From Patescibacteria group bacterium (lineage in GTDB: Bacteria > Patescibacteriota > Minisyncoccia > Phycocordibacterales > VMEP01), in NCBI GenBank assembly GCA_038065675.1, contig JBBTQM010000016.1, forward strand, positions 1 through 50,144: 50,144 bases of DNA, in the 5' to 3' direction. Position 1 is the first letter of the stretch; the number at the start of each line of letters is the position of its first letter. Shown piece by piece: positions 7,233 through 47,397 of the stretch. The notes under the pieces are model-generated. The model worked only from the letters and a program-made list of their open reading frames with translations. It was not told where the DNA came from and did no database searches. The position numbers and the translations under genes were made by a program.

Positions 7233-7269
7233 AACCCGCCTGCAAAAAATCTGCCCCGGCGGGTTTTTT
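7233..7269 (+). terminator. Intrinsic terminator
   Basis: AACCCGCC (7233-7240) / GGCGGGTT (7258-7265), 17-nt loop, T-run to 7269. Confidence 0.65.
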
Positions 7270-7270
7270 G

Positions 7271-7298
7271 TTGCATTTTTTGTACCCCCGTGTATACT
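7271..7298 (+). promoter_or_regulatory. Candidate outward promoter re-driving rplC and downstream genes
   Basis: TTGCAT (7271-7276), 16-nt spacer, TATACT (7293-7298) preceded by TG. A terminator-like hairpin TCCGCAA/TTGCGGA plus T6 (7345-7377) lies in the leader and is a possible attenuator. Confidence 0.45.
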
Positions 7299-7378
7299 CG
7301 CTAAGTCAGATCTACGTCCCCGTAATGGGGGACCAATGGACCACTCCGCAAATAGGATGCTCCATTGCGGATTTTTTA

Positions 7379-11585: not shown

Positions 11586-11951
11586 ATGCGATCACTAAAA
11601 AAAGGACCATATGTTGAGGAGCGCCTGCTCAAAAAAATAGAAGGTAAAAAGCCGGGCGCTTTGGGCGTGATTAAAACATGGGCTCGCCGCTCCGACATAT
11701 CGCCTGAAATGGTCGGTTTTACCTTCGGAGTTCACAACGGCAAGAACCATATTGACGTTTTGGTGACTGAGGACATGGTTGGGCACAAGCTTGGTGAATT
11801 TTCGCCAACACGCAAATTCGTGAAGCACGGAGGCAAGATGCAGAAAGAAATTGAAGACCAGAAAAAACAGGCCGAAATCGCCTCCGCCCAAGCCGCCAAA
11901 GCCGCGACAACCGAGGGCGCCAACAAAGCTCCGGCAGCCCCTAAGAAATAA
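11586..11951 (+). CDS. rpsS: 30S ribosomal protein S19 with Ala/Lys/Gln-rich C-terminal extension
   Basis: [10 protein letters not shown]...[13 protein letters not shown] core, plus about 30 extra residues ([36 protein letters not shown]). Confidence 0.95.
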
Positions 11952-25791: not shown

Positions 25792-25840
25792 AAAATAGAC
25801 ATAGTAATAAATTAACAAAATAATATATAATAAATAAAAC

Positions 25841-26956
25841 ATGCTCACCCTCCTCTCCGCAATCAGCTCAATCCTCGCCCCGATCTTTTTAGGATTGGGA
25901 CTGAATTTCGCTCTGGCTTGGACCGGCCCTACCGCCGCCGCGCCGTTGAGCAATACCCCGACTCCAGTCAATATCGGCGCCACGAGCCAAGTAAAAAGCG
26001 GTGGATTATGGACTGGCTCAATCGGTACAGACGGCGGAGCCACATTCGGCGGTAGCGTCGGCATCGGGACGGTGAGTCCGGGGTACAAATTGGATGTAAG
26101 CGGAACAGCCCGAGCCACGAGCGATATGCGCGCGCCGTTATTTTATGATACTGACAATACCCTATATTATGCCGACCCGGCCTGGTGGAGCAGTTTTAAC
26201 AGTATTGCCGCCGCCAGAATAGACTCCGATATTTTATACGACAAAAACAATACCGGCTATTACGTGGATCCGAACAACACCAGTCGCTTGAATTACGGCA
26301 TATACGACAATCTATATTCGTACGGCTGGATGCAGACACCGATTTTTTATGACTCCAACAATAATGGATATTTTTTGGACCCGGACAGCACCAGTAATCT
26401 TAATTATCTCAACGTAGGGACACTCTACGCCTACGGCAATATGCGGGCGACCGGATACATCACGTCAGATTACGGATATTGGACGCGCTACGGCATTCAG
26501 GGACCATTTAGCAACAATGTGTTTAACTTTTATTGGGACGGGAGCTGTGAATATGCTTTCATAGACTATACCCAGGTTAACGCTTGGTGCATTTCCGACC
26601 GCCGCGGCAAAGAAAATATCGCAGATGACCCTAAATCGGGGCTTGGACGCGTCATGCAGATGCGCCCAGTCGTTTTCAACTTCCTTAAAGAAGAAAGGCC
26701 AGGCTTGGACCCTAACGTAAAAACCCTTCATCACGGTTTCATCGCCGACGAAATGGAGCAGATTATACCTTCCGCCGTCAACGGCAAAAAAGACGCAGTG
26801 GATAAGGACGGCAATCCGGAATACCAGAGCATAAACTACGATGAAATTACCCCCATACTCACCAAGGCTCTGCAGGAATTAAACGTAAAAGTGGAAGAGC
26901 AACGAAAAGAAATAGACCTGCTTAAATCCGAAATATATAAACTCAAGAATAGATAA
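25841..26956 (+). CDS. Tail-fibre-like surface protein with C-terminal intramolecular chaperone (Peptidase_S74-type) domain
   Basis: N-terminal TM/signal with an AWTGPT motif. YYxDPxNTS repeats. C-terminus ISDRRGKENI...VFNF...GFIADEMEQIIPSAV...YQSINYDEITPILTKALQEL plus a coiled coil, which is the pattern of self-cleaving tail-fibre/endosialidase chaperone domains. Confidence 0.8.
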   Translation: MLTLLSAISSILAPIFLGLGLNFALAWTGPTAAAPLSNTPTPVNIGATSQVKSGGLWTGSIGTDGGATFGGSVGIGTVSPGYKLDVSGTARATSDMRAPLFYDTDNTLYYADPAWWSSFNSIAAARIDSDILYDKNNTGYYVDPNNTSRLNYGIYDNLYSYGWMQTPIFYDSNNNGYFLDPDSTSNLNYLNVGTLYAYGNMRATGYITSDYGYWTRYGIQGPFSNNVFNFYWDGSCEYAFIDYTQVNAWCISDRRGKENIADDPKSGLGRVMQMRPVVFNFLKEERPGLDPNVKTLHHGFIADEMEQIIPSAVNGKKDAVDKDGNPEYQSINYDEITPILTKALQELNVKVEEQRKEIDLLKSEIYKLKNR

Positions 26957-26957
26957 T

Positions 26958-26976
26958 TCCAAGGGGAGCCCTTGGA
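26958..26976 (+). repeat. CCAAGGGGAGCCCTTGG hairpin, copy 3
   Basis: TCCAAGG, loop GGAGC, CCTTGGA, 1 nt after the stop of the tail-fibre-like gene. One loop substitution relative to copies 1 and 2. Confidence 0.8.
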
Positions 26977-27032
26977 TGTGTAAGCTTGGCAGTAAAAAAG
27001 AAATTTTTCCGCCAGTGCGGTATTATTAAGAC

Positions 27033-29792
27033 ATGGATTTAATGTTCGCCGCCGGAGAGAAATTAAACAGCCTTGGAAAAGAGATGGCTTTTTTGCGTGA
27101 GAAGATGAAGGAGTCTGCCGGCAAATCGCAAGAAGCTCTTCGCGCAAACTTGGAATCCCATGCCGCGAAAGCTCTCGTAGACTACAGGGGAGCAAAAAAA
27201 GAAAACGTTATACCCGAAGAATACAAAATACCGGAAGAAAAAGAGAAAGGGATTGTTCTAAAGCTTTCTCCGGAGCCCCACGACGCAAAAATAGAGGAAC
27301 TTTTGGGGATATTGCTTGAACACGGAGTTAAAAACACGCTCGCGGTGCTCGAGAGGTTGAATGACCCCCATTTGGACGACGATTTCCACCGCTTTCTCGT
27401 CCAATATCTTTCTGTCGGCAATCCCGTCCCGGGCCTTTCAAAAGGCGGAGATGTTTTTCAGGGAGTAAACATGAAGCTTTACCGCATTGCCGTGCCGCGC
27501 GCAGGTGAAACGGTTAACATTCGTGAATTTATATCAAAAATGGAGCAGTTTTACGCGGGGATGCTTTACGTTTCCGATTCAAAAAAACCTGAACCGGGAA
27601 AAAATTATTTTACTTTGGAATTCGCCCTTCCGGCCGAGAGCCCCGAGCTCGCGCTTTACGCCGCCGTGGAGCGCGAAAGAGCTTCAATTTTTGAAAAACT
27701 GTTTCTGGCTTTTTATCCGGACGCGCGCCTTACGGAAACGACCGACGATTACAATGTATTCGTGGAAAACGGAGCTTCGCTCGGCGCCAAGGCGTCGCTT
27801 CTTGCAAGCGGAGTGTTTCCCATAAAAACGTACGGAGAATTTGAGCATGACCCGATGGAAGCCGTTCTCTCGGCATTCTCAAGAATCGCCAGAAAGGGCG
27901 AGGGCGCGGCGCTCCAACTTGTTGTCGCGCCGGCGGGAGATTCCCTAATAAAGCGTTACGGACAGGTATTGGGGGAACTTGACCGCGGGGTCCCCATCAA
28001 AGATGCCATACCTTCGGACAGTATTTTGGACGCGTTCGCCAAGATAGGCAAAGACCTTATTTCCGGGAGTAAAAAGAAAGAAACAATCAACACTCAAGTT
28101 GAAACCGCCAAAACGCGCATAAAAGAAAAAATCGCGAGCTCCATGTCGTACGCGAACATTCGTATCGCAGTTTCTTCCGGAACTGTGGAGAGAAGCAAGG
28201 AGATATTAGGGCAAATCGCGGCGGCGTTCAATCAATTGCGTCTGCCGGAAGGGAACGGAATTACTTTTGAAATTTGCGAAGGACGGAACGCGATTAAGCT
28301 TTTCCATGAATTTTCGTACCGGCTTTTTTCCGAGGGCGACGCCTTTCCTCTTAATTTGAAAGAACTGTCCACGATTTTGCATGTTCCCGGGGGGCAGAAT
28401 AGCGGCGGCGCGCAGATTCTTGAGGCGACCTGGAAAACGGCAAAAGCACCGGCTAATATCCCAATGAGCGGGACGGTTTTGGGAATAAATAGGCATCAGG
28501 ATGCCGCTACCGATGTCCGCATTTCAATTGAAGACCGAATGCGGCATCTCTACGTAATAGGCCAAACAGGAACCGGGAAAACGACACTTTTAAAACAGAT
28601 GATTATTCAGGATATTGAAGCGGGGCACGGAGTTTGCATGATAGACCCGCACGGCGCCGACGTTGAGGATATTTTGGCGCATATTCCGGAGTCGCGTATC
28701 GGAGACGTAATTTATTTTGACCCGAGCGACACGGAACGCCCAATGGGGCTTAACATGCTTGAATACGACCCGCGCTATCCGGAGCAAAAAACATTTCTGG
28801 TCAACGAACTTCTCTCAATTTTCAACAAGCTTTTTGACATGAAAGTCGCCGGCGGCCCGGCTTTTGAGCAGTATTTCAGGAACTCCGCGTTCCTAGTCAT
28901 GGATGACCCGGAATCGGGGAATACCCTTCTGGATATTGCCCGCGTTCTATCCGACAAAGAGTTTCGGGCCATGAAGCTTTCGCGGACGAAAAACCCTCTC
29001 GTCGCACAATTCTGGCAAAACGCCGAGAAAACAACCGGAGAGCAGGGGCTTGCCAATTTCGTGCCGTATATAACCAATAAATTTGACGTGTTCCTTTCAA
29101 ATGATGTTATGCGGCCGATTGTGTCGCAGGAACATTCGGCGTTCTCTTTTCGCGACATAATGGACCAGAAAAAAATTCTTTTGGTTAACCTTTCCAAGGG
29201 ACGTCTTGGCGACATAAATTCAAGTCTTTTGGGTCTCATTATTGTCGGTAAATTTTCCATTGCCGCTCTTTCGCGCGCCGACATGGTTTCCATGGGGAAG
29301 AAACCGGAAGATTTTTTCCTTTACATAGACGAATTTCAGAATGTAACCACCGATTCAATAACGACAATTTTTTCCGAAGCGCGGAAATATAACTTATCGC
29401 TCACAGTCGCGCATCAATACATTGCCCAACTTCCGGAGAATATAAAGCAATCGGTTTTCGGCAACGTTGGCTCGCGCGCCGTTTTCCGCGTCGGCCAGGA
29501 GGACGCGGAATTTTTGGAAAGGCAATTTCTGCCTATTTTTAGCGCTAAAGATATTGTCAGTCTTTCAAACAGAAACGCGTACGTTAAACTTCTGGTGAAC
29601 GGAGAACCCGCGGCGCCTTTCAGTATGGAAACAATAATTTTTCCTCCGGGAGACGCGGCGCGGGCGATGAAAATTCGCGACATCTCGCGCGCTAAATACG
29701 GGAAGCCGCGCGCCGAGGTTGAAGCGGCTATCGCCGCCAAGTTTAAGAAAAACCCACAACCCACAATCCACAATCCGCAACTTGCAACATAA
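27033..29792 (+). CDS. Large P-loop ATPase with VirD4/TraD (type IV coupling protein, HerA/FtsK superfamily)-like C-terminal half
   Basis: 919 aa. Walker A VIGQTGTGKTT, then CMIDPHGADVEDIL and YFDPSDTERPMGLNMLE. Walker B-like FFLYIDEFQNV. Also SEARKYNLSLTVAHQYIAQL. The N-terminal 480 aa or so are unassigned. Confidence 0.8.
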   Translation: MDLMFAAGEKLNSLGKEMAFLREKMKESAGKSQEALRANLESHAAKALVDYRGAKKENVIPEEYKIPEEKEKGIVLKLSPEPHDAKIEELLGILLEHGVKNTLAVLERLNDPHLDDDFHRFLVQYLSVGNPVPGLSKGGDVFQGVNMKLYRIAVPRAGETVNIREFISKMEQFYAGMLYVSDSKKPEPGKNYFTLEFALPAESPELALYAAVERERASIFEKLFLAFYPDARLTETTDDYNVFVENGASLGAKASLLASGVFPIKTYGEFEHDPMEAVLSAFSRIARKGEGAALQLVVAPAGDSLIKRYGQVLGELDRGVPIKDAIPSDSILDAFAKIGKDLISGSKKKETINTQVETAKTRIKEKIASSMSYANIRIAVSSGTVERSKEILGQIAAAFNQLRLPEGNGITFEICEGRNAIKLFHEFSYRLFSEGDAFPLNLKELSTILHVPGGQNSGGAQILEATWKTAKAPANIPMSGTVLGINRHQDAATDVRISIEDRMRHLYVIGQTGTGKTTLLKQMIIQDIEAGHGVCMIDPHGADVEDILAHIPESRIGDVIYFDPSDTERPMGLNMLEYDPRYPEQKTFLVNELLSIFNKLFDMKVAGGPAFEQYFRNSAFLVMDDPESGNTLLDIARVLSDKEFRAMKLSRTKNPLVAQFWQNAEKTTGEQGLANFVPYITNKFDVFLSNDVMRPIVSQEHSAFSFRDIMDQKKILLVNLSKGRLGDINSSLLGLIIVGKFSIAALSRADMVSMGKKPEDFFLYIDEFQNVTTDSITTIFSEARKYNLSLTVAHQYIAQLPENIKQSVFGNVGSRAVFRVGQEDAEFLERQFLPIFSAKDIVSLSNRNAYVKLLVNGEPAAPFSMETIIFPPGDAARAMKIRDISRAKYGKPRAEVEAAIAAKFKKNPQPTIHNPQLAT

Positions 29793-35107: not shown

Positions 35108-36055
35108 ATGTTTGGAAATAACGGGAGAAAAAATTCATTTTATATAGGCTTAGTGGCCGTATTTTTTGCCGGCTTTTTCTTTTATGAATGGCTCCAAGAA
35201 GTAAGAATAAATAAAAAAATAGATTCATTGCGGACGGAACTTTTAGGGCCGCAGGCGGCGCTTGAGAAAGAATCAAAATCTCAGCAAAGCGACATTATTT
35301 CCCTCAAAGAAATGGTTAATAGAGAGCAGGTTATAAAAAAATCGCAGGACGAACTCCTTACCGCGGCGGTGGCGAAAGCCACCCCGGCGGTTGTTTCCAT
35401 AGTGGTTTCCAAAGACGTGCCGAAACTGGAAGTCGTGTATGTTAATCCGTTTGGCGAAGACCCATACTTCAAAGATTTCGGATTTCAAGTTCCCGTTTAT
35501 AAGCAGAAAGGAGTTGAGAGGCAAAAAGTCGGCGCCGGAACCGGATTTTTGGTAACCGGGGACGGTTACATTATTACCAACAAGCATGTGGTTCTCGATA
35601 CCGAAGCGCAATATACAGTATTGCTTTCAAACGGGCGACAAGAAAATGCAACCGTTGTATACAGAGACCCGAAATACGATATTGCCATCGTCAAAATCTC
35701 GGGTGTGGGATATAAAGCGGTTACCATTGGTGATTCGGGCAAGCTGAAACTCGGCCAGACTGTTGTCGCAATCGGAAACGCGCTCGGACAATACAGCAAT
35801 TCAGTTTCAGTAGGGATTGTCTCCGGCTTAAACAGAAATATAAGCGCTTCGACTGGCGCCGGGGCGGAAGAACTCACCGGTGTTATTCAAACAGATGCCG
35901 CCATCAACCCCGGGAATTCCGGCGGGCCACTTCTTGATTTGGAGGGCGATGTCGTTGGTGTCAATGTTGCCACGGTTATCGGTTCAAGCAATATAAGTTT
36001 TTCCATACCGATTGACTCTGTGTTGGAATCAATCAAAAAAGTTATTTCTTTTTGA
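35108..36055 (+). CDS. HtrA/DegP-family trypsin-like serine protease without PDZ domain
   Basis: N-terminal TM helix. Catalytic triad contexts ITNKHVV, DIAIVKI and NPGNSGGPLLD. Confidence 0.88.
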   Translation: MFGNNGRKNSFYIGLVAVFFAGFFFYEWLQEVRINKKIDSLRTELLGPQAALEKESKSQQSDIISLKEMVNREQVIKKSQDELLTAAVAKATPAVVSIVVSKDVPKLEVVYVNPFGEDPYFKDFGFQVPVYKQKGVERQKVGAGTGFLVTGDGYIITNKHVVLDTEAQYTVLLSNGRQENATVVYRDPKYDIAIVKISGVGYKAVTIGDSGKLKLGQTVVAIGNALGQYSNSVSVGIVSGLNRNISASTGAGAEELTGVIQTDAAINPGNSGGPLLDLEGDVVGVNVATVIGSSNISFSIPIDSVLESIKKVISF

Positions 36056-36071
36056 GTTTTTTATTTGATGT

Positions 36072-36216
36072 GGAGATGGGATCGCCTACAAGTTTTTCCT
36101 CGCCGCCGCTCGGAAAACTCGCAGGCCGCCCCTCGCGGTTTCGTTTGCTAACGAAACAACGCTACGGTCTTCGATTCCCCCACGCGAGCAAAGCAGTTTG
36201 CTCGCTCATCTCCACC
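36072..36216 (+). ncRNA. tmRNA-like relic or candidate small RNA, in the opposite orientation to ssrA
   Basis: The 5' GGAGATGGGATCGCCTACAAG resembles the ssrA 5' end GGGGATGATCGGCATAGACAG. The 3' TTCGATTCCCCC-[25-nt palindromic insert]-CATCTCCACC equals the ssrA T-loop/acceptor 3' strand. GGAGATG/CATCTCC forms a perfect 7-bp acceptor-like stem, but the T-stem 5' strand is degenerate. Confidence 0.4.
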
Positions 36217-36227
36217 GAAAAAACAAA

Positions 36228-36254
36228 AGCTCCCTTGCGGGAGCTAATGTTTTT
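36228..36254 (+). terminator. Intrinsic terminator after the tmRNA-like relic
   Basis: AGCTCCC, loop TTGC, GGGAGCT, then AATGTTTTT. Confidence 0.55.
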
Positions 36255-36491
36255 AAATCGGTGGAGATTACTACACGATGTTAGAACCTCCATCATTGAA
36301 TCACCAGATATGAATTTCCTTAAGGTGGTAGATGGTTGGGTGGACCTTCCAGCCATCCTCCGAGAGCTACGTACACCATCCATTAGAACCAATAGGTAGG
36401 TATATGATCGTTAACAACATTCACGACGTTAACTGAACGTAATGAATGAGGTGAATGTCTAGGAAAGAGTACTCAGGTACAATGGCCTCAT

Positions 36492-36899
36492 ATGGCAGTA
36501 GAGGTAGATAAAGAAGCCAAGTGTGGAGGGTGTGGTGCCACCCTAGATGAGCAATACAATCTCCCTTTGGAAGCTCGAACGCCTTGCCCTAAATGTGGGT
36601 CTCTAATTCGCGCCCTAAGGATAAGTATTTCCGAGACTGTCGAAGTACACGATTCTCTGAGGTTGGCGCATAAGGACTCTGATGGCAAGAAGCTTGCCCA
36701 GATTCAATCTGGTGATGACCTCCATAGAGATACCAATACTTGGAGAGTACTCGAACGAGTAATTGATTGGAGTAAGAAGTGGTATACCGAAACAATCAAA
36801 GACCGTACCACTGGAGAAGTTATAAGCCACACCAGTGAAGACCTGCGCGCACATACTGGACACGGCGCAGCAAAACCTAAAGACACTAGAGATTCCTGA
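36492..36899 (+). CDS. Hypothetical protein with N-terminal zinc ribbon (135 aa)
   Basis: CGGCGATLDEQYNLPLEARTPCPKCGS provides CxxC...CxxC. First gene of a three-gene plus-strand block. Confidence 0.6.
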   Translation: MAVEVDKEAKCGGCGATLDEQYNLPLEARTPCPKCGSLIRALRISISETVEVHDSLRLAHKDSDGKKLAQIQSGDDLHRDTNTWRVLERVIDWSKKWYTETIKDRTTGEVISHTSEDLRAHTGHGAAKPKDTRDS

Positions 36900-37680
36900 T
36901 GGATACAGCTACTATAGGTGGGTGAACACCACTCTAGAATCCATATCCTTTGATTACTCAGACGCTGACAAAGCACTCTTTGAGAATGGCCAAGATGCTC
37001 ACTGGCAGCATATTGAGGAGTACTACGTAACTCTTAGGGCAAGGTGTGTAGACGAACTAAAAATATCTGAAAGTGGCACTCATAAGGCATGGATAAGCCA
37101 GAGGGTAGAGATGCATATGGTGACATCCATCATGCGTCTCCTTTACTTAACCGAATCCTTTAGGGATGCTTCCGTCAAATTTAATGCCACCGCCGCTGCC
37201 GTTCACATAAAGGCGATGGTGGAAGTACCTTTCCATTTGGGATATCTGCTCTGGATTCTGTGTACCCATAAAAAATTTGAGGAAATGAAAGCAGAGCTGG
37301 CTAAAGTAGCTTGGGGAATTCAAGATGCAGATACCGGTCTGACAGGCAAAGCAAACATAACTCAAAAGGATTTCTACACACATGCAGATGAGATGATTGA
37401 AAAACATTTTAAAGATGAGCCTTCCACAATAAAGATATTCAAGACAATCTATAAAGAGGCCAATGCTTTTGGCCACCATAACTTTGAGGGGAGAAACGCG
37501 CTGGTGGGTGTGCAAAAAGGAGACACTTGGAAACCTAAGGATAGGAAAGAGTGGTTTATTTTCATGACAAGCAATATCTTTCAAGTCTTTCTGTACGCAG
37601 GCACAATCCTGAGTATGTCTTCCTTCTTTGTGAATGCCATAGATCACTACTTAGCAGAGTTACCAGATAATTTTGCATAA
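36835..37680 (+). CDS. Hypothetical helical protein (about 260-281 aa), paralogue of the next gene; start uncertain
   Basis: The track start is a GTG that overlaps the upstream gene by 65 nt, and there is no in-frame ATG until much later. The segment SFRDASVKFNATAAAVHIKAMVEVPFHLGYLLW aligns with ALRDVDHLASSEGAGPNILDLTRKMIEHGISIEYMLW of the next ORF. Confidence 0.55.
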   Translation: MKTCAHILDTAQQNLKTLEIPDGYSYYRWVNTTLESISFDYSDADKALFENGQDAHWQHIEEYYVTLRARCVDELKISESGTHKAWISQRVEMHMVTSIMRLLYLTESFRDASVKFNATAAAVHIKAMVEVPFHLGYLLWILCTHKKFEEMKAELAKVAWGIQDADTGLTGKANITQKDFYTHADEMIEKHFKDEPSTIKIFKTIYKEANAFGHHNFEGRNALVGVQKGDTWKPKDRKEWFIFMTSNIFQVFLYAGTILSMSSFFVNAIDHYLAELPDNFA

Positions 37681-37685
37681 ACTAT

Positions 37686-38447
37686 ATGGAGGAGAAACTA
37701 AAGAAGTTGATGGAGAGGACATTGATAGCCACCAAACCGCTAGCAGACGCAGCTCCTGTAGGTGACACAAAGTTTTTAATAGTACTGCTCGGCATATACC
37801 GAATCTCTTTCACTGCCTTAAGAGATGTTGACCACCTCGCTTCCAGTGAGGGAGCTGGTCCAAATATATTGGATCTAACAAGAAAAATGATTGAGCACGG
37901 TATCTCCATTGAATACATGCTCTGGAAGGGTAAGGAGGAAATGGCAGCCCGATTTCAGGATTACCTAACCGTTCAAATGCATGAGGAATTGGAACTTCTT
38001 AAATCTGTGGGCTTTGACCCTCAGAGTTTAAGTGCCGAGCTCCAGATTGGAGTTGAGGATACTGAAAAGGCATACAACGCACTTCCTAGTGGCACAAAGA
38101 AAGATAAGAATTGGGCAGGTGTGAATTTTGAGAAGATGTTGCAAGACCTTACTGCCGCAGGAGTTATTGAAGCGGCAGACTCGCCAAGACTATTATCTGC
38201 CTATGTGTGGGGTTGCCGATTAAACCATCCCAATCCTTTCATGACACATGCCTACCTAGAACCAAAGGAGATGGAGGTTGCAAATACATTCACACTGCGG
38301 TTAGGTATGATAATGGCACTTGCGGTGCACCTACGTCTTACCACCAGACTGATTGATGAGTCTCGTTTTGCGGCTGGTTCAAACATCTACCCTGAAGTAG
38401 CGGCCGATGTTACCGCGATTCAGAACGATCTCAGTTCTGTGGCCTAG
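37686..38447 (+). CDS. Hypothetical helical protein (253 aa) with an RxxxxH motif
   Basis: All-helical. RKMIEH (Rx4H) sits in a conserved-looking helix. Possibly DUF5677/HEPN-like (recollection only, low certainty). Confidence 0.6.
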   Translation: MEEKLKKLMERTLIATKPLADAAPVGDTKFLIVLLGIYRISFTALRDVDHLASSEGAGPNILDLTRKMIEHGISIEYMLWKGKEEMAARFQDYLTVQMHEELELLKSVGFDPQSLSAELQIGVEDTEKAYNALPSGTKKDKNWAGVNFEKMLQDLTAAGVIEAADSPRLLSAYVWGCRLNHPNPFMTHAYLEPKEMEVANTFTLRLGMIMALAVHLRLTTRLIDESRFAAGSNIYPEVAADVTAIQNDLSSVA

Positions 38448-39426
38448 ATAGCCACTTAGTAACAGTTTTTGCTGCTTCGTTTGTGAGAGCAGTATATTGC
38501 TCTTCTCCTCCAAAGACCTCTGGATTTAATGGCTGCCGCTTTGTGTTTATCTCGTGGATTGTTTTAAGCACTGTCATTTTTAGTGCTCCTGTCTCAACGA
38601 CAAGTTCGGTCATCCCTTGTTTTTCCTTCTCTGACATCTCATTTGGGTTCACCCCGTTCCTGTCTACGACATTAGTGGCAAATTTTGCATCAAGTGCAAA
38701 TTCCTTTACTAGCAAATCGGTTCTGCTGATGGATGCATTAAACAAGTCTTTTGATAGAGTTGTCCATTCATCATTCGGTGATGCTTCAGTATTCTCTGTG
38801 CCCTCACTCGCGGCTGCAACTAATGCATTGGACTTTTCGGATGCTGCGGCAAAGACCTCAAGACCCTCCTGTAACTCCTGTTGCAGTCTCTTTATGCCTC
38901 CAACGAGCATCTCTTTTGTAGCCCCGACAAGTTTCAGAATCTCATGTGCAATTCTAAGCGCTTCTTTAGGATCTGTAGAAGCAAGCATTGTCTTAGTCGC
39001 CTTATCCAGTTGGACATGGTAGTCACTCTCAGGGTCACTCTTATTTTCGTAGAAGGAAAATAAGACTTCCTGTTGGAAAAATAATGTTTCGACGACACGT
39101 TGCGCTTCAATAACATCGTTCATGATGTCGTGCGCGTGATAGAGACCCTCCATGGTCTCTACATGCTTCTTTCCCTCATCGTCCATTTTACTCATCATGA
39201 GTTCAAGAATGGTCTTATACATCTGTTTCCATGCAAGTTGCTGGTCCGTCAAATCGTCCTCATCTTTACTAAGGTTGGTGCGCTCACGAATGTATCTGTA
39301 CAGCTCGAAGAGGTCACTGAGTTTCATGCCTTCGCCATATGCAGCCATTTTGTCGGTAACCTCCTGTCTCACCCTAGAGAGGGTAGGTTCGTAGTCATCT
39401 CTATAACGTATTTTCTTGGAGGTCAT
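38431..39426 (-). CDS. Hypothetical acidic helical protein (331 aa), co-transcribed with the XRE regulator
   Basis: Its ATG overlaps the stop of the upstream HTH gene (ATGA at 39423-39426). No recognisable motif. Confidence 0.6.
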   Translation of the reverse strand: MTSKKIRYRDDYEPTLSRVRQEVTDKMAAYGEGMKLSDLFELYRYIRERTNLSKDEDDLTDQQLAWKQMYKTILELMMSKMDDEGKKHVETMEGLYHAHDIMNDVIEAQRVVETLFFQQEVLFSFYENKSDPESDYHVQLDKATKTMLASTDPKEALRIAHEILKLVGATKEMLVGGIKRLQQELQEGLEVFAAASEKSNALVAAASEGTENTEASPNDEWTTLSKDLFNASISRTDLLVKEFALDAKFATNVVDRNGVNPNEMSEKEKQGMTELVVETGALKMTVLKTIHEINTKRQPLNPEVFGGEEQYTALTNEAAKTVTKWLSRPQN

Positions 39427-39644
39427 GATTTTAGAAAGTAGTTAATTTGCTTATTGTAAATCCTTGCGAAACGTTGGAGTTCCACTACATCTACCCTTTG
39501 TTGGCCTGACTCCACGTTGGAGATATGGGACTGAGGTCTACCCAGCTTCTTAGCCACCTGTACCTGTGTCAGTCCAGCTTCCTCACGAGCCTTCCTTAGA
39601 CGCTCAATAAAGTAGGCATACTCCTTTGTCTGGACTGACTTCAT
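39423..39644 (-). CDS. XRE/Cro-CI-family helix-turn-helix regulator
   Basis: LTQVQVAKKLGRPQSHISNVESGQQRVDVVEL is a classical HTH_3 signature. I prefer the ATG at 39644 to the TTG at 39671 used by the ORF track. Confidence 0.85.
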   Translation of the reverse strand: MKSVQTKEYAYFIERLRKAREEAGLTQVQVAKKLGRPQSHISNVESGQQRVDVVELQRFARIYNKQINYFLKS

Positions 39645-39670
39645 ACTTACAGGCTGTATCCAAGAAGTCA

Positions 39671-39689
39671 ATATCCAAAGTTTGGATAT
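39671..39689. promoter_or_regulatory. Candidate operator palindrome in the divergent promoter region
   Basis: ATATCCAAA-G-TTTGGATAT, a perfect 9-bp inverted repeat between the XRE gene and the divergent 39734 gene. TATAAT at 39695-39700. Confidence 0.55.
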
Positions 39690-39733
39690 TTGTATATAAT
39701 CAATTCCGTATCATAAAAACCACTGAAAACGAT

Positions 39734-40156
39734 ATGGCACAGAAAATCAAACTTGGATTTGTCGCAGTTCTGTTTATTATCATGTTAGCTATAGCTATCC
39801 CTGCTTTGTTTGATTCTCGCGTGCAGTCAGCGCCAGTACAGACCGTACAGACTCCCACTGTTCGTGAGTACTCAAATGCTGAGGTCTATGCGATGGCAGA
39901 AACGATCATCTCTCCGTATCTCAAGGCACCCTCGACAGCTAAGTTCCCAAGCATGTCAGAGGTAAAGATCTCTCGACTGGAAAATGATGGATTCCGTGTT
40001 GATGGTTATGTGGATTCTCAAAATAGTTTTGGTGCCATGCTCCGCAGTCCATTCACTACAATCTTTCAATACAGCAGCTCCAGTGATAAAGCAGATATAT
40101 ACGCAGTGGTGCTCGATGGGGAAACCTTGCTAAAGAGGACGCCGAACGGCCAATAA
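39734..40156 (+). CDS. Small exported/anchored hypothetical protein (140 aa)
   Basis: Start taken at the ATG at 39734 (MAQKIKLGFVAVLFIIMLAIAIPALF). It is followed by two hairpins, including the terminator ATATCGCCCA, loop GAGT, TGGGCGATAT plus T-run (40270-40299). Confidence 0.6.
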   Translation: MAQKIKLGFVAVLFIIMLAIAIPALFDSRVQSAPVQTVQTPTVREYSNAEVYAMAETIISPYLKAPSTAKFPSMSEVKISRLENDGFRVDGYVDSQNSFGAMLRSPFTTIFQYSSSSDKADIYAVVLDGETLLKRTPNGQ

Positions 40157-40486
40157 GACATACGCTGAGGGTACTCCAGCCCCCTCTGAGGCACGCGAAT
40201 AGGATACCGTGTGGTTTCCACCATTTACCTATAAAGGAGGTGCGCCTCGTGCCCTCGGCGCACCGAATGATATCGCCCAGAGTTGGGCGATATTTTTTTG
40301 CTATGTCAATGCCTTTTATTTAAGCCACGAAAAAGCATGGAGTTTGCCATATATGTCGGTATTCATTCTTGTCCACAGCCCCGCGCGAGCGTGGAAGGTG
40401 TAGCATCGAAATCAAACCCTATACCCAAGTCGTGATGTTCGCAGCGCACGCAAACTTATCAGCTCACGCAAGTTTGCACATGAAAA

Positions 40487-40666
40487 ATGGCACCAAGCTC
40501 AGAGGGGCTAGTTCTATTCGCGCGGCTCTTTAAACAAGAATTCGCCGAGGAACTTACTCCAGAAGAAGTCGAGCAACAAGCTCGCACGCTCCTGAATCTC
40601 TACATAGCTATCTACCGCACTCCGCTGGAGGTATCAGAGGTTCAAAAATTATTCGACTCAGATTAG
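40487..40666 (+). CDS. Small hypothetical protein (59 aa), below the ORF-track cutoff
   Basis: My own translation: MAPSSEGLVLFARLFKQEFAEELTPEEVEQQARTLLNLYIAIYRTPLEVSEVQKLFDSD*. Co-directional with and adjacent to the next ORFs. Confidence 0.4.
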   Translation: MAPSSEGLVLFARLFKQEFAEELTPEEVEQQARTLLNLYIAIYRTPLEVSEVQKLFDSD

Positions 40667-40670
40667 AAAT

Positions 40671-40844
40671 ATGCATTCACTACTTACACCGCATCCAACG
40701 ATGAGCGACGAAGCCCTCCGCGCAAAGGAAGGCCAGCTCAACGTTCAGGTCATACTCCGAGAAATGGAGTTGAAAAAATTGAAGAAAGAGCTCGCAGAGG
40801 TTCGCAATTTTATCAGCATAAACATCTGGCGTTATGGAATCTAG
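40671..40844 (+). CDS. Small coiled-coil hypothetical protein (57 aa), below the ORF-track cutoff
   Basis: My own translation: MHSLLTPHPTMSDEALRAKEGQLNVQVILREMELKKLKKELAEVRNFISINIWRYGI*. It overlaps the start of the ATPase gene by 11 nt, which suggests translational coupling. Confidence 0.4.
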   Translation: MHSLLTPHPTMSDEALRAKEGQLNVQVILREMELKKLKKELAEVRNFISINIWRYGI

Positions 40845-42348
40845 TAAATCGCAGAGCAAAACGAGCAAGGACTCGATTGACCAGAGTAGTAAAAAAGAAC
40901 TCAAACCTCGTCCGATGGTTGCCTGCACACTCCCCGACGGAACACTCGTAGATATGGTCTACTCGACCACCACGGGAGCATCATTCGCAGTCGCTCAAGG
41001 AGATAAAATCTTTGGTCTGCCAGAACTCTACGTCGGCCAAGATGGAAATCTGGTCATGCAGGAAAAGGACGCGGTCTACAAATATGTACCGTCGTGGATT
41101 CTGAAAGACCATGTAAAAAAGAATTTCATCCACATCGCTTCGCATCAAGAGGAATATGGCTCAATGTCCGACCTGTATCAAGAGATTCGCTCACACATCA
41201 AGAAGTACGTCGTGCTAGAAGATCCTCGCTTCTATGATGTTGCCGTGGGGTATGTGTTGATGACTTGGGTCTACGATCGCTTCAACACAGTTCCGTACCT
41301 TCGTGTGGTGGGAGATCTCGGTACTGGCAAATCACGCTTCCTCGATGTTATTGGAAAACTCTGTAACCGCTCCCTTATGGCAAGTTCTATTTCGCCTGCA
41401 GCCATTTATCGCACGCTCGACCAAGTTGAAGGAACTCTCGTCTACGACGAAGCAGACTTCAAGTCGTCAGATATGACCGACGACATCGTGAAGCTGCTGA
41501 ACAGTGGGAATAAGAAAGGAGCGCCTGTCGTGAAGATGGAAGTATCCGATGATTCTATAAAGACCGTCACGTTCCGTGTGTTTGGTCCAAAGATACTTGG
41601 TTCCCGACGCAACTGGTCAGACCTCGCGCTTGAAAGCCGTTGCATCACATATAAGTTGTTCCCACTGAAGAAGGTTGATGTCTCAGTTCACCTACCGCCG
41701 TCGTTCGACGCAGAAACACAGATGCTCCGCAATAAGTTGCTGATGTTCAGACTCAAGAACTATCACATTATTCAGGAGACAGAGGATTCTCTTGGAGGGA
41801 TAGAATTTCCGAGGCTCCGCCAAGCAGTGCTCGCACTTACGTCAGTGCTCCAAGTGGTTGATAGAGAAGCTTTAGGAATAGTCCTCGATTTCCTAGGAGA
41901 CTATGAGAAAACACTTCTCGATACCGTGTCCACCGATAGTCATGCAGACGTACTTCTATCTATCGCTTGGCTCCTAGAGTTCGACGACATCATCAGGGAC
42001 TCTGGAAAGATGTACATGGAGTCGATTAAGAATAAGTTCAATGCCATGTATTACGAAGACTACGCGGAACGTGAGACTAAAGAGGTTCGTCGCGATGGCT
42101 CAGTGATGAGAATCCCAGGGCAAGTAGTCTCGTCAAGAAAGATTGGTAGTTATGTAGATAGGCTCGGCCTCGCCAAAGCAAGAGATGGGGGTGGTATCTA
42201 TATTCCACTTGGCAAAGAAGCTCCCAAGATTCAGAAGTTAGTTGCTCGCTTCGGCTTGCAGGATATTCTCACTGGATTTCGTGCCGATGAAGAGGAGGCT
42301 CGCAACAATCCAAATGCATTCAAGGAGGATAAGGAGAGACCTTTCTAG
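40834..42348 (+). CDS. P-loop NTPase of mobile-element replication/mobilisation type (DUF3631-like)
   Basis: Walker A GDLGTGKSR and Walker B TLVYDEADF. The context ISPAAIYRTLDQVEGTLVYDEAD...LLNSGNKKGAPVVK resembles island/plasmid primase-associated ATPases (recollection). Confidence 0.7.
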   Translation: MESSKSQSKTSKDSIDQSSKKELKPRPMVACTLPDGTLVDMVYSTTTGASFAVAQGDKIFGLPELYVGQDGNLVMQEKDAVYKYVPSWILKDHVKKNFIHIASHQEEYGSMSDLYQEIRSHIKKYVVLEDPRFYDVAVGYVLMTWVYDRFNTVPYLRVVGDLGTGKSRFLDVIGKLCNRSLMASSISPAAIYRTLDQVEGTLVYDEADFKSSDMTDDIVKLLNSGNKKGAPVVKMEVSDDSIKTVTFRVFGPKILGSRRNWSDLALESRCITYKLFPLKKVDVSVHLPPSFDAETQMLRNKLLMFRLKNYHIIQETEDSLGGIEFPRLRQAVLALTSVLQVVDREALGIVLDFLGDYEKTLLDTVSTDSHADVLLSIAWLLEFDDIIRDSGKMYMESIKNKFNAMYYEDYAERETKEVRRDGSVMRIPGQVVSSRKIGSYVDRLGLAKARDGGGIYIPLGKEAPKIQKLVARFGLQDILTGFRADEEEARNNPNAFKEDKERPF

Positions 42349-42480
42349 ACCTCAACTCATTAACATCGTTAACATCATTACTATTCCAACACGCCACACG
42401 TTGTAGACAGGTTCTAACATTTTTTTCCTGTACAGAACTCGCGAGCCAAATACCATCGGCAACATGATCCATATGTTGCC

Positions 42481-42666
42481 ATGTCTATGAAAAAGGTAGT
42501 TGTCTCTCGAAAAGTGAGCTCTCCAGCACCGAACAGGTTTGATGCCTGTGAACTTGCGAAAGGTTTGATTTTCGCCAGTGGTTTTAGTCATGGGCAAGTT
42601 GCTTATGTTAAATACCGTTCTGGCAAACTCACGATTCATCTGGGTAAGAAAGTGAAAGAGGAATAA
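42481..42666 (+). CDS. Small hypothetical protein (61 aa) upstream of the recombinase; possible directionality factor
   Basis: Only its position immediately upstream of the recombinase supports the call, and there is no RBS. The overlapping minus-strand ORF 42352-42684 looks less protein-like. Confidence 0.3.
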   Translation: MSMKKVVVSRKVSSPAPNRFDACELAKGLIFASGFSHGQVAYVKYRSGKLTIHLGKKVKEE

Positions 42667-42676
42667 CTCGCGTGTC

Positions 42677-44380
42677 GTGTCCATTAAATTTATGAAAGAA
42701 GATTACAGTCACCTAAAATTCGTTTACTACGGGCGTCGCTCGATAAAGGCCAATAAGACTGAATTGGACACAAGAATTGCGTCCCTTGATTCTCAAAAGT
42801 TTGAGATTGATCAACTCGCCGATAGATACAATATAACCATTCTCAAAACGTTCAGTGAAACGGAATCCGCCAGCGAGGCTGATGAGCGTCCAGAGTTCGA
42901 GAAGATGGTTGCCTATATTAAGTCTGGCAAGGCAAATGCAATTCTTTGTTTCGCAATTGATCGTTTGTCTCGTAATCCTATGGACAGTGCAAAAATTGAA
43001 ACTATGCTACAGAAAGGAAATCTGCAGATGGTTCTTGCACCTGATAGGAAGTGGACTCTCGATGGTCACGTCATTGCACGTGTTGTAGAAGCTGCGGCAG
43101 CAAACCAGTACATCATTGATCTCAAAAAACATATAAAGCGTGGGCAAGGAGACGCAGTGCGTCGTGGGTTCAGACCTGGCCTTGCTCCAATTGGATATAT
43201 AAACAGTAGATATCGTGAGAAGGGAATGGATGAGGAAATTAAGGTAGATGAACATCCATTCAGAATCCTCCGCTCGATGTTCGATAGAGTTTTGTCGGGC
43301 CAGTACACACCTTTCCAAGTATTGAAGTGGGCTACAGAGGTAGAAGGTTTCCGTTCTCGTAAAACAAGACGCTATCCCAAGGGCCGACCTCTATCCAAAG
43401 CTGCTTGGTACAATATTCTTTCTTCGCGTTTTTACTATGGAGAGTTTGAGTATCCAACAGGAGCTGGCAACTGGACTCAAATTACAGGTATGTACTACAA
43501 GCCTCTAATTACACGGGCAGAGTTTGAGACGGTTCAACATATTCTCCGTAAAGATGCTCCGCGCCCTAAGAAGCACGAACATGCGTATGTAGGACTTATG
43601 CGCTGTGGCCATTGTGGTGCAAGAATCACTTGTGAAGCCAAGACCAAACGCCAGAAGAATGGGAATGTTCACCACTATTCCTACTACCGTTGTACTGGCC
43701 AAGTTGATCCAGACTGCACTGAGAAATGCACTCGTCAGGACAGGCTAGAAGAACAGGTGGTTAACTACCTATCTTCAATCCAGATTTCTCCCGCCTTCCA
43801 TCAGTGGGCGATCAGTGAACTCAAAAAGGAATACGACAGAGAGATGGATAACAAAACCTCAGTCCTCTATTTGCAACATCGTGAGCACCAAAAAGTTAAA
43901 GAGATGCTTACGCGCCTCTACGATATGAGATTGGTGGGAGATATTGACTCCGACTATTTCCAGAAAGAGAAGGGTAGATTAGAAACTGAGGAAAAGAGGC
44001 TTGATGGTCAATTGGCAGTTATAAACGCACGCGTCCAAACATGGATATATGATGCTGAACGCATAATGACCTTCGCAGAGCGCGCCGCCAGTGAGTTTAA
44101 GAAGGGGTCTATGGAGAAGAGACGCTCTATTCTTGCTGCTCTTGGTACCGAACATAAACTCATGAACCGTGAGTTGACTATAAAAACACAAAAACCACTC
44201 CGTGTGGTACACGAAATGGTTTCTGAGTCGAAAGAAGCAGGATTTCCATTAGAACCTCCCAAAGAGCCTTTAGAATATGGCTCAAATGGAAAAAAGAAAC
44301 CTGTCAGTCTACGGTTGTGGAGATGGGGGGAATCGAACCCCCGTGCAGGTGAGATGCAACCGAACGTCTACAATGCGTAG
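42677..44380 (+). CDS. Large serine recombinase (phage-integrase type)
   Basis: Resolvase-type N-domain with catalytic-Ser context FVYYGRRSIKAN. Recombinase domain (GLAPIGY), zinc ribbon (CGHCGARITC...YYRCTG) and coiled coil. The start may be the ATG at 42692. The last 63 nt overlap ssrA on the opposite strand. Confidence 0.9.
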   Translation: MSIKFMKEDYSHLKFVYYGRRSIKANKTELDTRIASLDSQKFEIDQLADRYNITILKTFSETESASEADERPEFEKMVAYIKSGKANAILCFAIDRLSRNPMDSAKIETMLQKGNLQMVLAPDRKWTLDGHVIARVVEAAAANQYIIDLKKHIKRGQGDAVRRGFRPGLAPIGYINSRYREKGMDEEIKVDEHPFRILRSMFDRVLSGQYTPFQVLKWATEVEGFRSRKTRRYPKGRPLSKAAWYNILSSRFYYGEFEYPTGAGNWTQITGMYYKPLITRAEFETVQHILRKDAPRPKKHEHAYVGLMRCGHCGARITCEAKTKRQKNGNVHHYSYYRCTGQVDPDCTEKCTRQDRLEEQVVNYLSSIQISPAFHQWAISELKKEYDREMDNKTSVLYLQHREHQKVKEMLTRLYDMRLVGDIDSDYFQKEKGRLETEEKRLDGQLAVINARVQTWIYDAERIMTFAERAASEFKKGSMEKRRSILAALGTEHKLMNRELTIKTQKPLRVVHEMVSESKEAGFPLEPPKEPLEYGSNGKKKPVSLRLWRWGESNPRAGEMQPNVYNA

Positions 44381-44689
44381 TCTTTTTCGAAGTTTAAGAA
44401 AGGCGGTAAGAGAAAGACAAGATAACGCCCTCCCGATTCTCTATTTTCTCAAACGGCGCGAGAGACACGCGCCGTTCCAGTCTGAAAAGATGACACCCGT
44501 CACAACGTATCAGACGTCGGAAGTGCGGATGCGGCTTAGGCTAAAGCGAAAGCCGGAGCGTAAGGAGATAGAATCCCCTTAGCTTTTGAAAGTGCATTTG
44601 CATGTACTTTTTCCGAAAGTTTAGCGAGATTTCGGAGCTCGGCATTGCAATCCGGAAGCGATCAGCATCTGTCTATGCCGATCATCCCC
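44318..44689 (-). ncRNA. ssrA: tmRNA (SsrA)
   Basis: On the minus strand, 5' GGGGAUGAUCGGCAUAGACAG... to ...GGGGGUUCGAUUCCCCCCAUCUCCA 3'. Acceptor stem with G3-U70, T-arm GGGGG/UUCGAUU/CCCCC. An Ala-rich tag frame ends ...YAPAFALA-UAA. Adjacent to smpB. CCA is not encoded. Confidence 0.9.
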
Positions 44690-44783: not shown

Positions 44784-45230
44784 TTAAATGTGTTTTTTCA
44801 ACGTTCTTTCGATGTCACGTTTCGCATCGCGTTTTTTCAAGGTTTCCCGCTTATCGTATTTTTTCTTGCCGCGGGCAACCGCTAGCGAAACTTTTATCTT
44901 AGAGCCTTTACTATACATTGAAATTGGCACTATTGTCAAGCCACGTTTGGCTTCCTCTCCGGCTATCATTCTTATTTCTTTTTTTGTCAAAAGGAGGCGG
45001 CGCGTGCGCAGGGGGTCGTAGCCTTTCGGCGCGTTTGCCGGCTGGTGCGCGGGAATGTTTGCGCCGACAAGATATGCCTCGCCGCCGCGCACTATGATGT
45101 GCGCGCCGTCCAAAGAGCCGTGGTGGGTTTTTACGGACTTTACCTCGGTTCCCAGAAGCTCTATTCCGGCATCAAATTTTTCCAGAAACTCGTATTTTAG
45201 CCACGCTTTTTTGTATTCAACTAGAGACAT
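44784..45230 (-). CDS. smpB: SsrA-binding protein SmpB
   Basis: 148 aa. YEFLEKFDAGIELLGTEVKS and a basic C-terminal tail. Confidence 0.95.
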   Translation of the reverse strand: MSLVEYKKAWLKYEFLEKFDAGIELLGTEVKSVKTHHGSLDGAHIIVRGGEAYLVGANIPAHQPANAPKGYDPLRTRRLLLTKKEIRMIAGEEAKRGLTIVPISMYSKGSKIKVSLAVARGKKKYDKRETLKKRDAKRDIERTLKKHI

Positions 45231-47308: not shown

Positions 47309-47382
47309 CCACCCCTAGCTCAGTTGGTTAGAGCACAGAGCTTATACCTCTGCGGTCCTTGGTTCGAATCCAAGGGGGTGGA
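47309..47382 (+). tRNA. tRNA-Ile with anticodon UAU
   Basis: Hand-folded cloverleaf: acceptor CCACCCC/GGGGTGG, U8 A9, D-arm GCTC-AGTTGGTTA-GAGC, anticodon arm CAGAG-CTTATAC-CTCTG (anticodon TAT at 47343-47345), variable loop CGGTC, T-arm CTTGG-TTCGAAT-CCAAG, discriminator A. CCA is not encoded. Confidence 0.85.
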
Positions 47383-47397
47383 CAGAAAAATAAAAAA

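Follow-up and report, generated by a model that had tools for sequence, protein, structure and literature searches.

A putative integrative element with a large serine recombinase at the tmRNA 3′ end in a Patescibacterium from groundwater

Genes for tRNAs and for transfer-messenger RNA (tmRNA) are textbook landing sites of tyrosine integrases, and serine integrases are generally described at protein-coding or intergenic sites. Here we analyse a stretch of 50,144 nucleotides (the window, contig JBBTQM010000016.1 of the Patescibacteria group bacterium assembly GCA_038065675.1), in which a mobile element of about 8 kb appears to have inserted between the last nucleotides of ssrA, the tmRNA gene, and the original ssrA terminator. 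Judged from the sequence, we regard this explanation as highly probable when taken as a whole, that is, the insertion together with its common core, the large serine recombinase (LSR) behind it, the proposed mechanism and the type of element. An initial annotation of the same DNA had already proposed that an LSR whose open reading frame (ORF) reads into its target put an integrative element at the ssrA 3′ end, and this proposal holds, being strengthened by a pattern that we find throughout the recombinase family.

The order of genes at the locus is an htrA-like protease gene (35108-36055, + strand), the island block, ssrA (- strand), smpB (44784-45230, - strand) and ftsH (+ strand). The sequence indicates that the insertion is real and that its junctions are two copies of an 8-bp common core, which on the tmRNA strand reads ATCTCCAC and comprises the acceptor 3′ strand, the discriminator A and the first C. 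Counting one copy of the core, the island is 36269-44324, or 8,056 bp (about 8.06 kb), and the T-arm motif TCGAACC stands at 44333-44339, beyond the attR core. The tmRNA gene remains intact after integration, as its full-length tmRNA match attests. The features of the two borders, with the sites reconstructed from them, are the following.

36066-36222, - strand: structured host element outside the island, with homologues after ssrA in island-free relatives
36228-36245, both strands: intrinsic terminator hairpin AGCTCCCTTGCGGGAGCT, bidirectional, each strand having a T-run (terminator scan matches on both strands)
36261-36268, + strand: attL common core GTGGAGAT, identical to 44317-44324
44189-44225, - strand: terminator-like hairpin and T-run on the tmRNA strand, within the recombinase coding sequence (terminator scan)
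44315-44689, - strand: ssrA (tmRNA), tag ALSKAKGILSPYAPAFALA (Rfam RF00023, 119.6 bits, full length; ARAGORN 44317-44689)
44317-44324, + strand: attR common core GTGGAGAT, the last 8 nt of the tmRNA
Reconstructed attB: AATGTTTTTAAATCG-GTGGAGAT-GGGGGGAATCGAACC
Reconstructed attP: CAGTCTACGGTT-GTGGAGAT-TACTACACGATGTTAGAACC

The left junction comes from relatives that lack the island (L numbers denote the related sequences compared). Window positions 36067-36270 are homologous to the DNA directly downstream of ssrA in the island-free L054, L015 and L006, and this homology stops 7-10 nt inside the tmRNA 3′ ends of the relatives, its end on the window side being 36270. The terminator that directly follows the tmRNA 3′ end in these same three relatives, AAAACATTAGC-hairpin-GCTTTTGTTTTTT, corresponds to window 36222-36260, and the hairpin at 36228-36245 is, on this comparison, the original terminator of ssrA (and of htrA), now cut off from ssrA by the island. 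In the source metagenomes, contigs from co-occurring relatives show joints that connect 36234 to 44317 and 36253 to 44317. Since the block 36066-36260 follows ssrA in at least six recombinase-free relatives, it must be older than the island. In the integrated state, the hairpin at 44189-44225, which sits 92-128 nt downstream of the tmRNA 3′ end, may act as a replacement ssrA terminator supplied by the island. RNA runs queried with ssrA returned distant matches only (at most 15% of words).

The second line of evidence comes from the recombinase gene itself, which is written across the right border and for which a second 3′ end lies at the left border.

42677-44380, + strand: large serine recombinase, integrated form, 567 aa from a GTG start or 562 aa from the ATG at 42692
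36269-36399, + strand: attP P′ arm and last 44 codons of the excised-form recombinase (LLHDVRTSIIESPDMNFLKVVDGWVDLPAILRELRTPSIRTNR, then the stop)

The 567-aa serine recombinase ORF of the initial annotation stands, and its product is predicted to be an intact LSR. It carries the Resolvase (PF00239, E=2.6e-13), Recombinase (PF07508) and Zn_ribbon_recom (PF13408) domains, matches the PHROG integrase family phrog_95 (E=3e-52) and retains the catalytic motifs YGRRS...SLDSQ...DRLSRN; in an alignment of 30 sequences, Y13, R15, S17, Q35, R91 and R94 are invariant and the zinc-ribbon cysteines C305, C308, C334 and C342 are conserved. Database records annotate the gene as 562 aa, the 567-aa form not being recorded. 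No tyrosine-type Phage_integrase domain occurs in any island ORF (Pfam, PHROGs, NCBIfam), the sole recombinase being of the serine family. Its identity to characterised LSRs is low, the scores with the XisF and CcrB models staying far short of the cut-offs, and the recombinases of a viral contig collection are only 24-33% identical to it.

The recombinase ORF extends 64 nt antisense into the 3′ end of ssrA, so that, as had been noticed initially, its tail is encoded antisense to the tmRNA T-arm and acceptor; this tail consists of the last 20 codons and the stop (44318-44380), and its 20 residues are WRWGESNPRAGEMQPNVYNA. Rebuilding the excised form on the revised junction keeps the ORF in frame for 44 codons and gives a protein of 592 aa. 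This form reads LLHDVRT (DNA GATGTTAGAACC), and the DVRT motif (DNA GTTAGAACC) is conserved in those members of the family that are not integrated at an RNA gene. The DNA motif GTTAGAACC copies the tRNA T-arm, and the corresponding T-arm mimic, TAGAACC, lies at 36282-36288, within the P′ arm.

These two kinds of tail recur throughout the family, for which we collected more than 1,300 homologues, nearly all from Patescibacteria. About 25 of the 30 aligned homologues end in WRWGESNPR or in host-specific variants of it (RESNPR, AESNRR, GELNSGP), which are antisense translations of the T-arm of each host. A survey of RNA genes at 80 metagenome loci, 67 of them assessable, found 40 cases in which the recombinase ORF runs 10-109 nt into a convergent tRNA or tmRNA gene before its stop, and beyond those 40 RNA genes there were just 36 tRNA genes in 808 kb. 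The target is tmRNA for the closest homologues and otherwise tRNA-Asn, Gln, His, Ser, Ala, Gly, Arg, Met, Trp or Glu. In three further species genomes (L047, L052 and L059), a recombinase overlaps the 3′ end of ssrA in the same arrangement. Members away from RNA genes end in ...(L/M)xD(V/F)RT..., encoded by GTT(A/C)GAACC. By these sequence comparisons, the recombinase is a member of a large clade in which the gene has its 3′ end within a convergent tRNA or tmRNA gene.

Two side observations were made during this survey. The contigs of L047, L052 and L059 end within or just past the recombinase gene, at positions 5535, 11094 and 12730, respectively; breaks of this kind are typical of what is expected at strain-variable islands. 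In L120, an exact 16-bp repeat, TCCGGGGGTGGGATTC, occurs at 1196-1211 and 11589-11604, 10.4 kb apart, with a tRNA-Asn gene and an abutting recombinase, and a terminator-like hairpin lies just outside the far copy; among 25 homologous recombinases searched upstream for long tRNA-end repeats, L120 was the only case.

The reconstructed sites suggest how such an enzyme could find RNA genes. The motif T(C/A)GAACC stands at different distances from the core in the two sites, the real T-arm of attB (TCGAACC) occupying +9 to +15 and the mimic of attP (TAGAACC) +14 to +20. The same 5-bp offset separates L120, which is integrated at tRNA-Asn, from L133, which has an excised-form tail, in a cross-locus comparison of two different elements. 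In the LI integrase, the motif of the zinc-ribbon domain is shifted 5 bp toward the centre in attB relative to attP (Rutherford et al., PMC3783163). Because the offset found here on the right half-sites matches this rule, we propose that the zinc-ribbon domain reads the T-arm. The dyad symmetry of the reconstructed attB and attP is weak (9-12 of 22, with no clear centre).

In the mechanism that we propose, a recombinase dimer would bind attP, which lies inside the 3′ end of its own gene, and a second dimer would bind attB, composed of the acceptor 3′ strand and T-arm of the tmRNA plus the trailer's first bases. Both sites would be cut at a central dinucleotide within GTGGAGAT, and subunit rotation and religation would follow. 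In the right half-sites, T(C/A)GAACC is probably what the zinc-ribbon domain reads, as the real T-arm in attB or as its mimic in attP, and the choice of RNA gene would fall to the acceptor-stem part of the site. The tmRNA would be left unchanged through the discriminator A and the first C, its 3′ trailer being replaced, and the recombinase would exchange its last 44 codons for 19 codons antisense to the tmRNA. The excised element would replicate through its own superfamily 3 (SF3)/MCM-like helicase, an XRE-family repressor at a palindromic operator would keep the element silent, and excision would need a directionality factor, possibly the product of a conserved 61-aa ORF beside the recombinase gene.

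The genes on which the later steps of this mechanism would depend are found in the interior of the island.

36492-36899, + strand: 135-aa cargo protein with CxxC...CxxC, weakly zinc-ribbon-like (Zn_ribbon_8 E=0.007, below cut-off; gene call in L001/L086)
36922-37680, + strand: 252-aa cargo protein (gene call; no match in Pfam, PHROGs, NCBIfam or PADLOC)
37686-38447, + strand: 253-aa DUF5677 cargo protein (Pfam PF18928, E=6.8e-9)
38431-39426, - strand: 331-aa protein without a family match, co-transcribed downstream of the XRE gene with a 4-nt overlap
39423-39644, - strand: XRE-family helix-turn-helix (HTH) repressor, 73 aa as called, ORF to 39671 (HTH_31 and HTH_3, E about 1e-13)
39670-39690, no strand: perfect palindrome AATATCCAAAgTTTGGATATT, that is, AATATCCAAA-g-TTTGGATATT (10-nt arms, 100% complementary, 1-nt spacer)
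39734-40156, + strand: 140-aa predicted membrane-anchored protein (phrog_13160, E=2.5e-14, and phrog_26910; homologues in L092 and L095)
40487-40666, + strand: conserved 59-aa backbone ORF (LTPEEVE..AR.LLNLYIA.YRTPLE; aligned with its L178 and L181 counterparts)
40671-40844, + strand: conserved 57-aa backbone ORF that overlaps the helicase start (counterpart in L178)
40834-42348, + strand: predicted 504-aa SF3/MCM-like replicative helicase with Walker A GDLGTGKS (AlphaFold2 model, predicted local distance difference test score 84.7)
42481-42666, + strand: conserved 61-aa ORF directly upstream of the recombinase (KY..GKLTI..GKK), its position and sequence kept in L178 and L181

The initial annotation had listed among the cargo a replication-type P-loop ATPase and an XRE repressor with an operator palindrome, and both identifications are borne out. 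Sequence comparison of the 504-aa protein with Pfam, PHROGs, NCBIfam, PADLOC and the sequences of the PDB gave nothing significant; its structural model, searched with Foldseek, matches the helicase region of NrS-1 (5e-8), PriRep1, Cch (5dgk, 1e-5) of the staphylococcal cassette chromosome SCCmec, Rep40 of adeno-associated virus and papillomavirus E1. These matches have a probability of 1.0 and E values of 5e-8 to 1e-4, with whole-chain TM-scores of just 0.2-0.4. Residues G163, G165, K166, D205 and E206 are invariant, and on the strength of the model the protein is taken as the replication protein of the island. The XRE protein has the HTH domains, also matches PHROG transcriptional repressor families and has homologues in the related islands L093 and L094, and the perfect 10+10 palindrome, which lies between the divergent XRE and 140-aa genes, is a candidate operator. 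The families phrog_13160 and phrog_26910 are phage-associated and have no assigned function. The 61-aa ORF is a candidate recombination directionality factor or regulator.

Part of this cargo forms a backbone in the order 59-aa ORF, 57-aa ORF, 504-aa protein, 61-aa ORF and recombinase, which recurs at the ssrA of other genomes (L089, L092-L095, L178, L181), where both the cargo and the neighbouring host genes are different, and in L091 adjoins a tRNA-Arg gene instead. Homologues of the 504-aa protein with 35-55% identity lie just upstream of the LSR in L089 and L091-L095, and ORFs of the same size occur in L178 and L181. These last two islands, of about 4.65 kb and 7.25 kb, carry the module of helicase, 60-aa ORF and LSR at ssrA with cores of 9 and 6 bp, and have different host genes on their left. 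No virion genes (capsid, portal, terminase, tail) were found among the scanned island ORFs with PHROGs, Pfam and NCBIfam. From its gene content, the element is best described as a small integrative self-replicating element, plasmid-like or satellite, rather than as a prophage.

The foreign nature of this DNA is apparent in its oligonucleotide usage. The tetranucleotide profile of the island correlates with that of the host at r=0.27, compared with 0.89-0.975 for 8-kb windows of the host; the start of the window (its first 8-10 kb) correlates a little less well with the remainder (0.89-0.92). The abrupt change of composition described initially is thus confirmed for oligonucleotide usage (r=0.27 against at least 0.89) but not for GC content, which is not distinctive (45.3% against 47.3%) and whose profile is uninformative as a border marker, and the resolution of the analysis does not place the switch right after 36055, as had been claimed.

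Several observations weigh against the explanation that we prefer. An 8-bp repeat within 8 kb is not significant alone, and for this reason the border rests on a cross-species comparison in which the SmpB proteins are 54-68% identical. No mirrored T(C/A)GAACC was found on the left half-sites of the reconstructed attB and attP, the inferred excised-form tails of the related islands L178 and L181 lack DVRT, and the repeat of L120 is longer than expected for a serine recombinase and is not followed by a shifted T-arm mimic. No recombination directionality factor was identified in the island, and the activity of the recombinase is itself a prediction. For the same strain, neither an empty site nor a circular junction came to light; all contigs with an identical SmpB or HtrA that reach past ssrA carry the island, according to exact-protein look-ups, and among the contigs of four source metagenome runs only the integrated form was found, at both junctions, at a depth equal to that of the flanks. 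These runs were examined as contigs, which cannot reveal rare excised or empty forms.

The last group of these observations, namely the island on every contig of the species that reaches the region, the lack of excised and empty forms, the equal depth and the absence of a recognisable directionality factor, would also fit an element that was integrated once by its recombinase and is now an immobile, stable part of the chromosome of this lineage. We hold this to be unlikely, considering that the element retains intact its recombinase, helicase, repressor and conserved small ORFs, that the oligonucleotide signature is still strongly foreign, that related islands at ssrA elsewhere differ in cargo and flanks, and that the contigs of relatives often break at the recombinase (in L047, L052 and L059, as described), besides the fact that contig-level data cannot detect rare excision. 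Far less probable is the island as drawn in the initial annotation, which would begin at 36056 or 36081, end at 44327, be flanked by the 12-mer TGTGGAGATGGG and include 36066-36222 and the terminator 36228-36245 as its own DNA. The 12-mer is indeed exact at both places (36069-36080 and 44316-44327), lies above chance (three matches with at most one mismatch, two of them exact, against about 0.1 expected), is longer than the 8-bp core and formally flanks a composite of a small element and the island. However, its left copy belongs to the host element and is not a border, the block 36066-36260 pre-dates the island, the metagenome joints map to 36234-36253 and not to 36080, and the excised form would end in the tail WDRLQVFPRRRSENSQAAPRGFVC, without the DVRT/GTTAGAACC motif of the family. 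The junction consequently moves from 36069 to about 190 bp further right, after the core at 36261-36268, and the length from 8.3 kb to about 8.06 kb. Under the 12-mer border, the ssrA junction would read ...TTATTTGA-TGTGGAGATGGG-GGGAATCG; under the revised border, the circular junction is expected to read ...CTACGGTT-GTGGAGAT-TACTACACG....

With the revised borders, two further alternatives concern the nature of the element and the meaning of its recombinase tail. The island could be a phage satellite or defective prophage that needs a helper phage for packaging, instead of a plasmid-like integrative replicon. Its recombinase and 140-aa protein match PHROG families, the former an integrase family, and its layout of an XRE repressor with operator, divergent early genes and an SF3 helicase resembles that generally known for satellites of the phage-inducible chromosomal island type; moreover, the members with excised-form tails L133, L155 and L135 lie on contigs of 15-54 kb that could be phage genomes. 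The lack of any capsid, terminase, portal or tail family match for an island protein, and the distance of the recombinases in the viral collection, make this rather doubtful. As for the run of the ORF into ssrA, we incline slightly to see it as a functionally meaningless consequence of the position of attP, the tail being exchanged without a regulatory role: antisense-tRNA tails vary with the host T-arm and in length (with an overlap of 10-109 nt with the RNA gene), and DVRT coincides exactly with the DNA motif GTTAGAACC, so that conservation at the DNA level suffices. On the other hand, the attP-form tails stay in frame and extend well beyond the motif, and placement of attP within a gene is used as a switch in other systems.

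The preferred explanation, an integrated LSR element bounded by the 8-bp core, can be extended to the whole clade, although only as a tentative suggestion. In Patescibacteria at large, this LSR clade would have taken over the niche of tyrosine integrases at the 3′ ends of tRNA and tmRNA genes. The zinc ribbon would read the universal T-arm (TTCGAACC) in attB, with a mimic placed 5 bp further out in attP, the acceptor-stem half would set the specificity for a given tRNA or tmRNA and so allow modular retargeting between RNA genes, and the swap of the C-terminal tail may act as a switch tied to the integration state. Our full-text literature searches found no serine-integrase clade dedicated to tRNA or tmRNA 3′ ends.

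Known systems share parts of this arrangement. The LSRs encoded by phages and by integrative and conjugative elements (ICEs), such as those of phiC31, Bxb1, A118 (LI integrase), TP901-1 and SPbeta (SprA), have the same three domains and catalytic motifs and also share a short common core between their sites (8 bp here, as in a mycobacterial prophage serine integrase, PMC9303363), and the motif common to attP and attB lies 5 bp nearer the centre in attB for LI integrase (PMC3783163), a relation that the right half-sites of our island also show. They use protein-coding or intergenic targets, whereas the island recombinase uses the 3′ end of a tmRNA or tRNA gene and the motif that it reads appears to be the universal T-arm sequence. 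A precedent for the tail exchange is provided by streptococcal ICEs that target rumA, in which the serine integrase gene carries attP within its 3′ end and the C-terminus is exchanged (PMC4701971); their partner, rumA, is protein-coding and has its own 3′ end exchanged as well, whereas the RNA gene that is the partner of the island stays unchanged.

Elements of the Islander type, with tyrosine integrases (P4-like elements, cluster K mycobacteriophages), share with the island the integration at the 3′ end of ssrA, an RNA gene left intact, an integrase gene proximal to it and a hot spot that holds more than one element. They differ in their tyrosine recombinase, the island having a serine recombinase, no arm-type sites and an ORF that runs into the RNA gene, and in their identity block of 17 to 50 or more bp (the displaced fragment is usually at least 15 bp), against only 8 bp at the far end of the island. 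In its way of working the element resembles a tRNA/tmRNA island, yet it lacks the tyrosine integrase of that type. SCCmec-type elements (Ccr with the MCM-like helicase Cch) are likewise small integrative LSR elements with their own SF3/MCM-like helicase, Cch being among the best structural matches of the 504-aa protein, and both insert at the 3′ end of a conserved translation-related gene, which is the protein-coding rlmH (orfX) for SCC and ssrA for the island. The CcrA, CcrB and CcrC models score 28-57 bits against the island recombinase, with cut-offs of 700-900, and no partner genes of the LP1413/CCPol type were found in the island. Tycheposons and related cryptic elements of Prochlorococcus, a different phylum, are described as small integrative elements by tRNA or tmRNA genes with replication genes, like the island, and 27 of 937 carry a large serine instead of a tyrosine recombinase (bioRxiv 10.1101/2020.12.28.424599).

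Next to the island, the structured host element at 36066-36222 deserves separate consideration. On the tmRNA strand it consists of GGTGGAGATG, a 9-bp hairpin with a CUGC loop, GTGGGGGAATCGAA, a variable middle and CCCATCTCCACA, in that order; GTGGGGGAATCGAA is antisense to the tmRNA 3′ end, and CCCATCTCCACA is a direct copy of this end and constitutes the left 12-mer at 36069-36080. The family to which it belongs has the general form of an antisense of the acceptor 3′ strand, the hairpin, an antisense of the T-stem and T-loop, the variable middle and the copy of the tmRNA 3′ end. The element folds with z-scores of -5.3 and -4.3, the covariance model R1 gives 75 bits at the window element, and the hairpin shows compensatory changes in 8 of its 9 pairs, with a CUGC or CUAC loop. 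Homologues were located at the following places.

L054 8257-8417, L015 10985-11154, L006 10980-11124 and L036 6661-6839: directly after ssrA and its terminator, in several Paceibacteria
L045 10961-11119, L057 2482-2683 and L031 7182-7246: likewise directly after ssrA and its terminator
L012 7349-7412: after tRNA-Ile (7246-7319)
L012 3131-3196: after tRNA-Ser (3018-3107)
L006 4066-4139: after tRNA-Ile (3984-4056)
L020 3043-3108, - strand: after tRNA-Ser (3124-3212)

In six of these relatives (L054, L015, L006, L036, L045 and L057), the element after ssrA stands where there is no recombinase, and the conserved element 36066-36222 was rejected as a border of the island on this ground. Its antisense part follows the tmRNA of each genome, for instance GGGGTAGCGAA against TTCGCTACCCC in L036. 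The copies next to tRNA genes have antisense arms and a distal direct repeat (17 to 37 or more nt) tailored to the neighbouring tRNA, and because such tailored copies also follow tRNA genes, the element is a multi-copy, RNA-gene-specific family and is not confined to ssrA. In L036 (6661-6935), a partial second copy follows the element in tandem, at a period of about 204 nt, and in L057 (2426-2720) it is flanked by a 48-nt direct repeat that runs from the tmRNA T-loop through the terminator; from their sequence, these arrangements look like att-type or tandem duplications.

The window element has no Rfam match at E<=1. In relatives, sub-threshold matches to RF04321 (permuted tmRNA, tmRNA_permuted; 24-29 bits against a gathering score of 47) reach from the tmRNA 3′ end across the terminator into the start of the element (L054 8181-8277, L057 2426-2492, L036 6608-6671), and they arise because the 3′ acceptor strand precedes the hairpin, which is then followed by a complementary strand like that of a 5′ acceptor. 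A second tmRNA or tRNA gene was rejected as the identity of the element, there being no ARAGORN or Rfam call and no T-stem that can form. These structured elements flanking tRNA and tmRNA genes may be a new class of RNA, or a miniature mobile element tied to the same sites.

The host of the island is a Paceibacteria-like Patescibacterium from groundwater. The window is matched by contig CAYICC010000001.1, of the metagenome-assembled genome (MAG) GCA_964361895.1, and by Hainich H43 groundwater assemblies, the source metagenomes being the H43 runs behind ERR3858116 and ERR3858118, and its nearest species in the genome collection are Parcubacteria/Paceibacteria MAGs with an SmpB identity of at most 68%. 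Elsewhere in the window, a tRNA-Ile gene with the anticodon UAU (TAT in the gene), which is unusual in bacteria for this tRNA, lies at 47309-47383 (+ strand), and a tRNA-Ile with this anticodon is also present in the relative L181 (16437-16510). Genes for a Peptidase_S74 protein and for a 919-aa TrwB/DUF87-like ATPase lie upstream of htrA at a distance of about 5-9 kb (window about 25840-29790, from L086 734-4685). Peptidase_S74 is a domain of the phage tail-fibre chaperone type, and such genes, like those for TrwB/DUF87-like ATPases, are often associated with mobile elements.

If our reading of attP and attB is true, these enzymes would recognise a sequence present in nearly every tRNA gene of every organism together with a short variable part. 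This would bear on how site specificity evolves, and also on efforts to find serine integrases whose natural landing sites in unmodified genomes are neutral. For the Patescibacteria themselves, these findings indicate that mobile, self-replicating elements are common in small genomes in which mobile DNA is little known.

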